64,000 nt of DNA, from assembly GCF_913775315.1 (NCBI RefSeq), contig NZ_CAJYIX010000002.1, one strand, 5' to 3'. Below, piece by piece: positions 57,829-61,641 of the stretch (the stretch's first letter is position 1; each line of letters starts with the position of its first letter). This DNA is from an uncultured Sphingomonas sp. (lineage in GTDB: Bacteria > Pseudomonadota > Alphaproteobacteria > Sphingomonadales > Sphingomonadaceae). Both the position numbers and the translations under genes were made by a program. Under the pieces are notes generated by a model that ran no database searches, was not told the origin of the DNA, and saw only the letters and a list, made by a program, of their open reading frames with translations.

Positions 57829-57859
57829 TTGACCCTGTAGCTGCTACAGACACTAGATG
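57829..57859 (+). promoter_or_regulatory. MerR-type promoter/operator 1 (drives CDF gene)
   Basis: TTGACC-CTGTAG CTG CTACAG ACAC-TAGATG: 19-bp spacer containing a dyad. Confidence 0.88.
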
Positions 57860-58623: not shown

Positions 58624-60497
58624 CGGGTCTGGCGGAAGTTCAGCAGGTTCTCGGCGTTAAGGAACAGGCTGACCTTGCCCAGCTTCAGCTCGCCCATCGC
58701 GCCCAGCTCGACATAGGGACGGCTTCGGCTGCGATAGGGGTCGTCCTCAAGGCTCTGGCGGCCGGTATAATAGGCCTCCAGCCCGATCCGGCCGCGCTCG
58801 TGCTTCTCCCACACCGCTGTCAGCCCGGCGGTATTGCGCGGAGTGAGGGGAACGGCTCGCCGGCCGATGCCGTCCGGGTTCGGTTCGCGCGCGTCGGTGC
58901 GGACATAGCTTCCGGTGAAGGTGATGGCGTTTAGACGGCAGCGCAGCAGCAGCTCGGCCCCGCGCGAGCGCGTCACGCCATCGGCGTTGACCAGTTCGGC
59001 GCGGGTGGCGCTCACATCGCGGAGCTGGACGGCATGGTCGATGTTCGACCCGAACAGCGTCAGGCTCGCCTCGATCGGCCCGTGCGCATAACCGAAGTCG
59101 ATCGAGGCGGTGTCGGCCGTTTCGGCGCGCAAGCCCCGTAGCGGCTCGATCCGCGACAACCCTGCCGCCTCCACTTCCTCGATGAACGGGGTCGGCGCAT
59201 AGAAGCCGCGACCCAGCGACGCGCGCACGGTGAAAGGGCCGGGCCTGAACAGCGCCGACACGCGCGGACTGACGCGCGTACCGTATTCGCTATGGTCGTC
59301 GAGGCGCGCGCTGCCCGCAAGCGTCAGGTCCGCCGACACCTTCTGCTCGGCCTGCACGAACAGCGCGGGCACTCGATAGGTGTAGTCGAAAGCCGGGAAG
59401 GTCCGCGAGCGATAGCTGTCCACCTGGTAGGCGGCACCGGCGAGCCAGGTCGTGTCGCCGGTGCCGCCGCCCAGCGATGCCTCGGTCAGGACGGTGTTGT
59501 GGCGGTCATTCTCGATCACGTCGCCGAAGGTGTGCCGATGGGCCTGCGTTACGCCCGACGCGCGCAGATAGAGCGTACCGACGCCCTCGATCGGCGCCTG
59601 GGCGTTGAGGCCGGCGTCAAATCGCCGGCTGCGCTGATCCTGGGCGAAGGTCGAACCGTCCGGCACGACGCGGCCGGGCAGTGTGCCGCCGCGGCGCTGC
59701 TCGGCGAGCGCCCCGACCGTCAGATAGGCTTTCGCGCCGCCCGCACCGTCCCAGAACAGCCGCGGTCGGAACGTCCAGCGATCATAGCCGGGAATGTTCG
59801 CCCAACCGTCGCCGTCGATATCCTGGGCGGACTGCCGGTTGAACCCGCCGGTCAGCGAGTAGCCGATCGCCTCTGTCAGCGGACCGGAATTGTAGCCGGT
59901 CACGTCCTGCCCGCCCCGGCTGGTCGCGTTCACCAGCAACTCACCCAATTGTGCCGGCGAAGGTCGGCGCGACACGAGATTGATGACGCCGCCCAGCGCC
60001 GATGGGCCGTAGAGCGCGGATGCCGCACCCTTGATGATCTCGACCTGTCCAAGGTCGGTAGGCGGTATTTGTAGAAGGCCGATCGATGGCGTCTGCCCGC
60101 CGTAGAGCGGCAATTCATCGGCGAGGATTTGCGTGTAGCGACCTTTCAGGCCCTGCACCCGGACGTTCGCCGCCCCCAGCGCCGGCGACGTAACCTGGAC
60201 GCGCAGACCGGGCGTCTCGTTCACCAGCATGGAGATGTTACCGGGCTGCATGAGGATTTTCTCCTCGACCTCTTCCCGGTTCAACACCTCGACGCGGATC
60301 GGCTCGTCCTGCACCCGGCGACCGGTGCGGGTAGCCTGGACCACGATGTCCTCGCCCTCATCAGCTTCCTCGGTGGACGTCGGCGGCACAGCTACGGTTG
60401 GTCGATCCTGTGCCGCCGCAGCGTTCGCTGTCAGGCATAGGACCGCAAACACGATGGGCGACGCTATCAAAATCCTGTCGCCTGCTCTGTACGGCAA
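58503..60497 (-). CDS. TonB-dependent outer-membrane receptor
   Basis: Signal peptide, IVVQATRT TonB box, VEIIKGAASALYGPSALGGVINLVS plug, NAENLLN, terminal RFRF. Confidence 0.93.
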   Translation of the reverse strand: MPYRAGDRILIASPIVFAVLCLTANAAAAQDRPTVAVPPTSTEEADEGEDIVVQATRTGRRVQDEPIRVEVLNREEVEEKILMQPGNISMLVNETPGLRVQVTSPALGAANVRVQGLKGRYTQILADELPLYGGQTPSIGLLQIPPTDLGQVEIIKGAASALYGPSALGGVINLVSRRPSPAQLGELLVNATSRGGQDVTGYNSGPLTEAIGYSLTGGFNRQSAQDIDGDGWANIPGYDRWTFRPRLFWDGAGGAKAYLTVGALAEQRRGGTLPGRVVPDGSTFAQDQRSRRFDAGLNAQAPIEGVGTLYLRASGVTQAHRHTFGDVIENDRHNTVLTEASLGGGTGDTTWLAGAAYQVDSYRSRTFPAFDYTYRVPALFVQAEQKVSADLTLAGSARLDDHSEYGTRVSPRVSALFRPGPFTVRASLGRGFYAPTPFIEEVEAAGLSRIEPLRGLRAETADTASIDFGYAHGPIEASLTLFGSNIDHAVQLRDVSATRAELVNADGVTRSRGAELLLRCRLNAITFTGSYVRTDAREPNPDGIGRRAVPLTPRNTAGLTAVWEKHERGRIGLEAYYTGRQSLEDDPYRSRSRPYVELGAMGELKLGKVSLFLNAENLLNFRQTRYDPLLLPRRAPDGAWTVDAWGPLDGRTINGGVRFRFGGD

Positions 60498-60549
60498 AAC
60501 GCTACCCCTGCATGGGCGTCGCGATCATCGGGACGCTTGTGAGGGACGG

Positions 60550-60580
60550 CCCATAAGGGCTGTAGCCGCTACAGGGTCAA
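60550..60580 (-). promoter_or_regulatory. MerR-type promoter/operator 2 (drives TBDR gene)
   Basis: Minus strand TTGACC-CTGTAG CGG CTACAG CCCT-TATGGG; 20 of first 21 nt identical to operator 1. Confidence 0.85.
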
Positions 60581-60635
60581 CACTGTATTGGTCAGGACCG
60601 TTGTGCGCGGTCCCTGGTCGATCTACGACACCGCC

Positions 60636-60980
60636 ATGTCGCTCCGGGCCTTCCCGCTTTTCCGGCTCGTCCGCACCGCCACGATCGTCGTCCTGGCGGT
60701 GATGATGCTCGTGCGGCTTGGCCCGCTCTGCGAGACGATGGCGATGGCCGCGACGCCGATCGCGTCCGCGGCGATGGATTGCGCCAACACCCCAGGCCAC
60801 GTTCCGATCAAGAAAATCCCGCCCTCGGCCTGCGCCACGCCGTGCGCGGCGATGTCCGGCGAGACGGTTGCGCACGTCGAACCGATGCTGTTCGTGCCGC
60901 TGTCGCCTTGGGCGGTCGCCCATACCGGGCTGCTCGGACTTACCAGCGCACCGGCAACGCCCCCTCCGCAGACCGCGTGA
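60636..60980 (+). CDS. Cys-containing, Pro-tailed small protein (DUF2946/CutF-like)
   Basis: N-terminal hydrophobic helix, CATPC, C-terminal SAPATPPPQTA. Confidence 0.6.
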   Translation: MSLRAFPLFRLVRTATIVVLAVMMLVRLGPLCETMAMAATPIASAAMDCANTPGHVPIKKIPPSACATPCAAMSGETVAHVEPMLFVPLSPWAVAHTGLLGLTSAPATPPPQTA

Positions 60981-61020
60981 CGTCGAACCTGACCTCACAC
61001 GAATCTACACGGAGAATACC

Positions 61021-61203
61021 ATGACCAAGTTCAAGCTCATCAGCGCCGCTTTCGCCCTCACGCTCTCGACGGGCGCCTTCGCCGCGGTCGCGAATTGCTG
61101 CGCCGATATGGCGTGCTGCAAGGACGGTGCTGACTGCTGCGATCATGGCGACGAGGCGAAGGGCGGCGATCACGCCGGCCACGCCATGCCGAACATGAAG
61201 TAA
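61021..61203 (+). CDS. 60-aa secreted Cys/His/Met-rich peptide
   Basis: Signal peptide ending AFA; CC-X4-CC-X5-CC then HGD...HAGHAM; GGAG RBS. Confidence 0.8.
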   Translation: MTKFKLISAAFALTLSTGAFAAVANCCADMACCKDGADCCDHGDEAKGGDHAGHAMPNMK

Positions 61204-61212
61204 GACGAAGGG

Positions 61213-61241
61213 ACGGGGGGCGGGCGACCGCCCCCCGTTTT
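61213..61241 (+). terminator. Rho-independent terminator
   Basis: ACGGGGGGCGG-GCGA-CCGCCCCCCGT-TTT. Confidence 0.85.
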
Positions 61242-61286
61242 CATGGCGCGCCATATCGAGCGTGAAGCCACCACTAGACTACACTT

Positions 61287-61310
61287 ATATATCCACTATG
61301 CTAGATATAT
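61287..61310. promoter_or_regulatory. Putative ArsR operator
   Basis: ATATATC-N10-GATATAT overlapping the arsR start codon. Confidence 0.6.
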
Positions 61311-61641
61311 GGAAAATGAGTCAGCAATCGCTGCGCTAGGCGCGCTCGCCCAAGGGACGCGGCTCGACGTGTTCCGCCTGTTGGTGCGTCACGAACCGGA
61401 CGGCATGGCGGCGGGCAATATCGCGCGGGCGCTCGACGTGCCGCAGAACACCATGTCGGCGCATCTCGGCATCCTCGCGCGCGCCGGCCTGGTCCGCTCT
61501 GAACGGCATAGCCGCTCGATCATCTACCGTGCCGATCTGGACGGCCTGCGCGCGCTGACGCTGTTCCTCGTCAAGGATTGCTGCGCCGGCAATGCGGAGC
61601 TGTGCGCGCCGCTCGTCGCCGAACTCGCCCCCTGCTGCTGA
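61309..61641 (+). CDS. arsR: ArsR family As(III)-responsive repressor
   Basis: [21 protein letters not shown]; C-terminal DCC...C...CC. Confidence 0.92.

Follow-up and report, generated by a model that had tools for sequence, protein, structure and literature searches.

A mobile two-gene cassette of Sphingomonadaceae that may place an exported Cys-pair peptide under a CutF-like leader

The window, namely the whole stretch of 64,000 nucleotides that was analyzed, belongs to an uncultured Sphingomonas sp. Towards its 3' end lies a short open reading frame (the micro-ORF) encoding a protein of 60 residues, termed here the micro-protein. It is preceded by a longer leader ORF, and the two genes lie between a promoter-like element and a terminator. 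The features are as follows:

60601..60629, + strand: putative promoter-like element of the cassette, TTGTGC, ~17 nt, TACGAC, ending ~6 nt 5' of the leader ATG
60636..60980, + strand: CutF/CruR-like leader ORF, 114 residues (110-118 in relatives), ending 40 nt 5' of the micro-ORF
60964..61014, + strand: mRNA hairpin predicted by MFE folding, in which CUCCG of the Pro codons, at 60964-60968, is base-paired with CGGAG at 61010-61014, the micro-ORF's Shine-Dalgarno (SD) motif
61021-61203, + strand: micro-protein ORF, 60 residues, translated as MTKFKLISAAFALTLSTGAFA followed by AVANCCADMACCKDGADCCDHGDEAKGGDHAGHAMPNMK
61021..61083, + strand: predicted signal peptide of the micro-protein, 21 codons, ending ...GAFA ahead of A, from sequence pattern and family conservation
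61084..61203, + strand: predicted mature peptide of 39 residues plus stop codon, CC-ADMA-CC-KDGAD-CC and then the His/Met tail GDHAGHAMPNMK
61210..61241, + strand: intrinsic terminator hairpin found by folding, followed by a T run and closing the two-gene unit

The N-terminal segment of the micro-protein (residues 1-21) consists of a K-rich n-region, a hydrophobic core and an A-F-A motif ahead of the presumed cleavage site, with A19 and A21 invariant or nearly so across the family. This pattern and its conservation suggest that the protein is exported via Sec and cleaved after AFA. The mature part carries six Cys arranged as CC-x4-CC-x5-CC, that is, three vicinal pairs, in addition to three His and three Met. 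The ORF translation agrees exactly with the original prediction of a 21-residue signal peptide and a 39-residue mature part with this composition. A lipoprotein reading was rejected, as there is no lipobox ahead of the first Cys, which is found in the contexts VAN-C, GS-C or AD-C. The SD sequence CGGAG is of the GGAG type and located 6 nt 5' of the ATG. Downstream, a G+C-rich stem of 11-14 bp (61213-61223/61228-61238) forms the terminator, with a dG of -29.6 kcal/mol and a z of -3.45, in line with the strong terminator proposed from the letters. A consensus promoter/terminator scan of 60400-61500 called no signal, although folding shows this strong terminator, and nothing in 60400-61400 matched Rfam. 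Among Logan contigs whose RNA library type is uncertain or guessed, one covers 60631-60982 and another stops at 61247; these limits are suggestive of transcript ends, and with the library type uncertain they do not count as evidence.

A word-indexed search revealed 79 homologues of the micro-protein, nearly all of 57-73 residues and all labelled “hypothetical”, and a scan of one genome per species yielded 121 micro-ORF loci. The latter are mostly from Sphingomonas, with some from Stakelama, Novosphingobium, Sphingobium and Sphingopyxis, in addition to two metagenome-assembled genomes (MAGs) labelled Devosia and Aurantimonas. The family is small, unannotated and nearly confined to Sphingomonadaceae. 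Its core MACCK[DE]GADCC is invariant and the first CC pair almost invariant, and many relatives have added a fourth Cys pair (…K-x-D-CC…). Most members end in a HAGHxMxxM-like tail, which is variable, unlike the invariant Cys core, and resembles the sites at which PcoE/SilE hold Cu(I)/Ag(I) in the periplasm. Over the first 39-40 codons the dN/dS is 0.06-0.17, and indels are in-frame. The micro-ORF is a genuine conserved gene under purifying selection. A decayed copy is present at three loci (L063-L065; a Sphingomonas MAG, Sphingomonas sp. ZB1N12 and S. faeni ALB2), where unrelated sequence stands in place of the start and signal peptide, and GC in place of the second Cys pair.

A profile search against 1.84 billion representative proteins gave 57 matches at E<=1e-3. 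Except for one eukaryotic repeat protein, they are all small, with a signal peptide, CC-x4-6-CC repeats and His-rich or His/Met-rich tails. Four proteins from other taxa (P0149, P0169, P0164 and P0170) are secreted, 99-147 residues long and carry many CC-x4-5-CC repeats, e.g. CCKPGAACC; they may make up a broader group of exported proteins built from Cys-pair repeats. No model was matched by the micro-protein in Pfam and NCBIfam scans, and PDB profile searches with both proteins of the cassette returned nothing, or noise at the level of the signal peptide. Structure prediction by AlphaFold2 from a 32-sequence alignment of the micro-protein gave a pLDDT of 51.6 and almost no helix or other secondary structure, hence no usable model. 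A disordered peptide of the apo-metallothionein or PcoE kind would likewise show no predicted fold, which in itself proves nothing. Our literature searches, on bacterial metallothioneins that are exported or periplasmic and on small copper proteins rich in Cys, did not bring up the family.

The micro-ORF is not autonomous: it is the second gene behind the leader. In the window leader, a hydrophobic segment at the N-terminus (TATIVVLAVMMLV) leads into RLGPLCE, another Cys and a CATPC motif (C66-x3-C70, at 60831-60845), and after a further 38 residues the leader ends in A-P-A-T-P-P-P-Q-T-A-stop. The triple proline (residues 109-111 of 114) is encoded by CCC CCT CCG at 60960-60968, three codons ahead of the stop. 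A scripted scan found a leader with CxxxC and the ending P-A-[TP]-P-P-P-[QR]-x-x-stop, 36-45 nt 5' of the micro-ORF, at ~90 of the 98 loci. Alignment of 18 diverse leaders showed that G29, P30, C32, C49, C66, C70 and P109-P111 are invariant. Even the distant micro-protein relative P0141 has a similar leader 37 nt upstream. The leader is absent at L008/L066, L067, L079, L082 and L084/85. At L001, L005 and L017 it was found where gene callers had nothing or an antisense ORF, as with the 77-residue antisense ORF at L001:7563-7796 (- strand). Because gene calls miss the leader or pick an antisense ORF, the family is under-annotated in databases.

Sequence searches did not place the leader in a known family. 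Pfam and NCBIfam scans of the window leader found nothing, with no Pfam match at E<=10. Within the leader family, the best score for DUF2946 (PF11162) is that of L080, a full-length match of 15.6 bits and E 0.027, below the gathering cutoff of 23.7 bits. An hhalign comparison of the leader profile with one bona fide DUF2946 protein, from an S. insulae plasmid, was not significant (probability 0.2%). UniRef labels two members (P0194 and P0213) “DUF2946 domain-containing”. As homology to DUF2946 is not demonstrable, we describe the leader as working like CutF, Pfam membership aside.

Alignment of the upstream regions revealed that homology between otherwise unrelated flanks starts ~45 nt 5' of the leader ATG. 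Within it, a conserved TTGnnn-N17-(C)TAnnn element ends 6-9 nt ahead of the leader start codon. Since no SD follows this promoter-like element, the leader mRNA is probably leaderless or nearly so, and the cassette appears to have its own leaderless-type promoter. In the window, the inverted repeat GGACCG-N7-CGGTCC (60595-60613) flanks the TTGTGC -35-like hexamer; at the same promoter site, other loci have GATCGC/GCGATC (L010, L025), CTCG/CGAG (L012) or no inverted repeat. Together, the upstream limit of homology and the terminator define a cassette of ~620 bp, about 60600-61241. This cassette occurs in at least 13 different arrangements, and near-identical micro-proteins (98%) are found in three different gene settings:

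Setting 1 (the window type): MerR-CDF-TBDR-cassette-arsRCB
Setting 2: resolvase-cassette-CDF-CzcABC
Setting 3: SoxA-type cytochrome-cassette-MerR-CDF-CzcCBA

The variants of 67-73 residues lie in units of the form MerR<->Grx-MauE/DoxX-leader-micro, which face DUF411-DUF305-CopB-CopA or a His-rich CDF. The cassette is also found on ten plasmids of sphingomonads in PLSDB, where its annotation is invariably “hypothetical protein”. The two-gene unit of ~620 bp is self-contained, mobile and enriched in Cu and Zn/Cd/As islands.

The supposed linkage to metal loci was borne out. When the loci were probed by tblastn with MerR, three CDFs, CzcCBA, CopA, CopB, DUF411, DUF305, ArsR and ArsC, ~82 of 98 (~84%) had at least one metal gene within 6 kb; the loci, like the sequences in the hairpin counts below, are related and phylogenetically non-independent. 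The remaining ~16 loci are without any probed metal gene, and some of them lie in purine-catabolism or housekeeping surroundings (L001-4, L008); at L001-4 the leader-micro pair is intact despite the non-metal surroundings. Three genomes have two cassettes each, namely Leaf20 (L044/L087), S. faeni ERG1.4 (L038/L091) and NFX23 (L040/L043). In Leaf20 and ERG1.4, one copy of 62 residues is located in a Czc island and one of 67 residues in a Cop island, which suggests sub-specialization.

In the window, a TonB-dependent receptor (TBDR) gene is divergent from the cassette, and it has been proposed that the micro-protein, or its metal complex, is a ligand imported or handled by this receptor. Upstream of the TBDR, on the minus strand, lies a MerR-type operator of its own, CTGTAG-N3-CTACAG (60566-60580), whose dyad matches that at 57841-57855 in the MerR/CDF divergent promoter, both within a TTGACC…-type promoter. 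This likeness favors the proposal, as does a second instance of TBDR and PepSY genes upstream of the cassette on a plasmid. However, only 9 of 98 loci, and in addition the S. insulae plasmid, have a TBDR-like gene within 6 kb; the cassette moves without a TBDR into many arrangements, and a peptide exported by Sec into the periplasm has no evident route to the surface. The ligand reading was rejected on this co-occurrence, and we attach hardly any probability to it. The TBDR operator dyad lies ~20 nt from the promoter-like element of the cassette. The S. insulae plasmid NZ_CP048423.1 (23969-31014; L102/L103) has a TBDR-hydrolase-TBDR-PepSY block just upstream of the cassette, headed by a bona fide DUF2946 protein that is His/Met-rich and ends in RGPPAYL; the plasmid thus carries two different leader-type regulators.

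In most Cop-type loci, a glutaredoxin-MauE/DoxX membrane fusion, divergent from MerR, is located directly 5' of the leader and the micro-ORF (L017:6828-7595 and the equivalent gene in L068-L101). It may act as a thiol-redox partner of the Cys pairs. At L079 the micro-ORF comes after this fusion with no leader between. Copper toxicity in the periplasm is well known, and from it one could derive a role for the peptide as a sacrificial thiol/redox buffer that reduces Cu(II) or serves as a decoy for copper-catalyzed mis-oxidation, cycling through disulfides. Such a role would suit vicinal Cys pairs in an oxidizing compartment and their linkage to Grx-MauE/DoxX and Cop genes in many loci. Nevertheless, we consider it quite improbable, given that the same family occurs in Czc/CDF (Zn/Cd) islands without Grx-MauE, the window included, and that the His/Met tail hints at metal being ligated directly.

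With its six to eight Cys, the short secreted peptide is also reminiscent of disulfide-rich toxins, and the lack of a predicted fold for the micro-protein would fit a disulfide-knotted peptide that serves some purpose unrelated to metals, as a signal, an antimicrobial or a structural element, or a precursor of a ribosomally synthesized and post-translationally modified peptide (RiPP) such as methanobactin MbnA. However, no modification enzymes such as MbnB/C, radical SAM or YcaO are found among the Pfam-annotated neighbors at 21 metagenome/genome loci, and there are no recurrent modification enzymes, transporters or immunity genes nearby. In addition, the signal is of the standard Sec type, whereas the enrichment in metal islands and the metal-sensor-type leader point to metals, which makes a disulfide-knotted or RiPP-type peptide very improbable. 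As for the metal sponge or metallochaperone of the original prediction, support comes from the context, namely the metal genes and the CutF-like metal-sensing leader, rather than from chemistry.

Folding of the region between the two genes suggested how they might be connected. Of 41 distinct sequences of leader 3' end plus intergenic region, folded one by one, 38 have an MFE fold that joins the SD to the PPP codons. In the window, the inner stem of the hairpin spans the leader stop codon (CGUGUGA/UCACACG), and in L001 it is formed by CGUGAUCG/CGAUCACG instead. Compared to dinucleotide shuffles, the hairpin segment has a median z of -3.0, with 79% of 39 sequences below -2; the window's own 121-nt fold reaches a z of only -1.58. 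An RNAalifold consensus, based on leader 3' ends and intergenic regions aligned with MAFFT, missed the long-range stem and gave only a 4-bp local stem, because the loop aligns poorly and the SD register shifts; per-sequence folds and shuffles were used in its place. The codon choice is consistent with the pairing. CCTCC is present within the last 24 nt of all 53 distinct leaders, compared to a CCT share among Pro codons of 3.7% in the other genes of the window and 21% elsewhere in leaders. Moreover, in lineages whose SD is GAGGA (L092, L093, L098), the Pro run reads CCT CCT C (UCCUC), a register-matched change. The micro-ORF was originally credited with its own ribosome-binding site (RBS). CGGAG is indeed present, but it is predicted to be masked by the polyproline codons of the upstream ORF and so would not act autonomously; the stall site and the anti-SD would be the same nucleotides.

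These features could also be read as ordinary translational coupling, in which case the 114-residue upstream protein would be a stable, membrane-anchored Cys partner of the micro-protein, engaged, for example, in thiol-disulfide exchange or metal hand-over. The four invariant Cys, the conserved GPxCE beside the transmembrane segment and the strict co-occurrence of leader and micro-ORF would fit such a partner, and the glutaredoxin-MauE/DoxX fusion that precedes both genes in Cop-type loci hints at a thiol-redox module. However, the PPP-x3-stop ending, the choice of CCUCC codons and the pairing with the SD are hard to explain without a regulatory role, and CutF, laid out in the same way, undergoes degradation once it has been exported (PMC9973294). 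We therefore regard a stable partner as unlikely.

By analogy with CutF-CutO, we propose that the leader is instead a metal-sensing nascent chain. The exported or membrane-inserted chain would expose its Cys motif to periplasmic metal while the ribosome is at PPP, and binding of metal would lengthen the pause there, as in CutF, or alternatively relieve it, as in CruR. The paused ribosome would cover the anti-SD and free the SD ~45 nt downstream, so that the micro-protein could be translated. By contrast, a ribosome that runs through would terminate three codons past PPP, and the hairpin would re-form. The micro-protein would then be exported by Sec and cleaved after AFA to give a disordered, acidic peptide of 39 residues in the periplasm, where three vicinal Cys pairs (four in some relatives), aided by the His/Met tail, might hold a soft metal. 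It would thus serve as a rapidly induced buffer or “sponge” alongside the efflux or oxidase system of the island (Czc, CDF, Cop).

On balance, we lean, by no great measure, towards a periplasmic soft-metal (Cu(I)/Cd/Zn) thiolate “sponge” peptide, with a metal-sensing nascent leader gating its translation, within a mobile two-gene cassette; export, metal binding, the identity of the metal and the direction of regulation are the parts that we infer. Cu(I) is favored for the Cop-type variants, since their leader has CxxxC, their tail is of the HxxHxMxxM type and their MerR, as we read it, has C-x7-C without an N-terminal Cys, and a broader Cd/Zn/Cu role seems likely for the window-type cassette. 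As the periplasm is oxidizing, the Cys pairs of the micro-protein may be disulfide-bonded. A stronger version, which we put forward only tentatively, is a minimal mobile “sense-and-sequester” cassette, in which the leader senses the metal and its PPP codons, as anti-SD, license a Sec-exported metallothionein-type peptide that holds Cu(I)/Cd(II)/Zn(II).

If true, the bacterial envelope would have its first thiolate-cluster micro-metallothionein, and CutF-like leaders a new class of cargo. A metal-binding peptide would represent a Cys-based, Sec-exported counterpart of the Met/His sponges PcoE/SilE and of Csp1, which is exported via Tat. One would then have to ask what keeps vicinal thiols metal-competent in an oxidizing compartment, a task for which the Grx-MauE/DoxX fusion of Cop-type loci is an obvious candidate. 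In addition, the cassette offers a compact test bed for the CutF model, with sensor, stall site, anti-SD and reporter-sized cargo within 620 bp, in which one synonymous substitution, CCU>CCG, could tell polyproline stalling and SD masking apart. It also bears on annotation, as the leader and the micro-ORF are labelled “hypothetical” or missed by gene callers.

Among known systems, those with DUF2946/CutF-like metal-sensing leader ORFs come closest. In the CutF-CutO system of Rhodobacter capsulatus, Cu bound to the exported Cys motif lengthens the stall at PPP, and a stem-loop in which the cutO SD is concealed is melted by the ribosome; CutF has four Cys, with C41xxxC45 and PPP ~40 residues further on, whereas CruR of B. 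pertussis has CxxC, 45 residues and RAPP three residues ahead of the stop (PMC9973294, bioRxiv 10.1101/2025.02.05.636593, PMC9426467). CutF-like proteins have been delimited by fewer than 150 residues, the presence of a signal peptide, PP among the final 15 residues and a gene downstream that shares the strand (PMC9973294), all of which apply to the window leader, its signal or transmembrane segment being judged from sequence. It has 114 residues and an N-terminal hydrophobic segment, an invariant C66-x3-C70 motif along with C32 and C49, an invariant PPP at 109-111, and a gap of 36-45 nt with predicted SD pairing in 38 of 41 folds. As in CutF, there are CxxxC, four Cys in all, and ~38 residues from this motif to a PPP three codons before the stop. 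Similar to CutF-CutO, CruR-BfrG (Bordetella pertussis) and CopL-CopA (Xanthomonas), the cassette combines a short exported Cys leader, a short intergenic region and an SD-hiding stem-loop. It differs from the CutF, CruR and CopL systems in its cargo, a 60-residue Cys-pair peptide without a Pfam domain rather than an oxidase, RND component, PCuAC or TBDR. It also differs in the anti-SD placed inside the polyproline codons, the putative leaderless-type promoter of its own, its mobility and the lack of a significant PF11162 match.

The cargo has partial likenesses of its own. Like PcoE/SilE, which are induced early under metal stress, the micro-protein is small, predicted to be exported and disordered, with a His/Met motif (HxxHxMxxM tail), and is found in mobile metal-resistance clusters. 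However, PcoE/SilE are without Cys and ~140 residues long, whereas the micro-protein has three invariant Cys pairs and a variable His/Met tail; with no sequence similarity to them, no Pfam match and a Cys-based core, it does not group with the PcoE/SilE family. PcoE/SilE act as periplasmic sponges, and copper storage proteins of the Csp1 type are exported via Tat (PMC7558416). The original premise that bacterial metallothioneins are cytoplasmic holds for SmtA/BmtA and MymT, which have no signal peptide, but is too strong in view of the exported Csp1 and PcoE/SilE (PMC7558416). The micro-protein shares with the bacterial metallothioneins (SmtA/BmtA, PmtA, MymT) and Csp1 a Cys-rich composition and, presumably, metal-thiolate chemistry. 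Compared to SmtA/BmtA and MymT, it carries a predicted Sec-type export signal, and it matches no Pfam or NCBIfam model that would make it a member of the SmtA/BmtA family. Csp1 is a Tat-exported four-helix bundle, whereas the micro-protein has no twin-arginine motif, almost no predicted helix (pLDDT 51.6) and no PDB profile match; nevertheless, Csp1 sets a precedent for thiolate storage of Cu(I) outside the cytoplasm. Altogether, periplasmic metal sponges and CutF-like leaders are kinds already known, and it is the Sec-exported vicinal-Cys cargo, the anti-SD within the stall codons and the portable two-gene packaging that appear to be undescribed.
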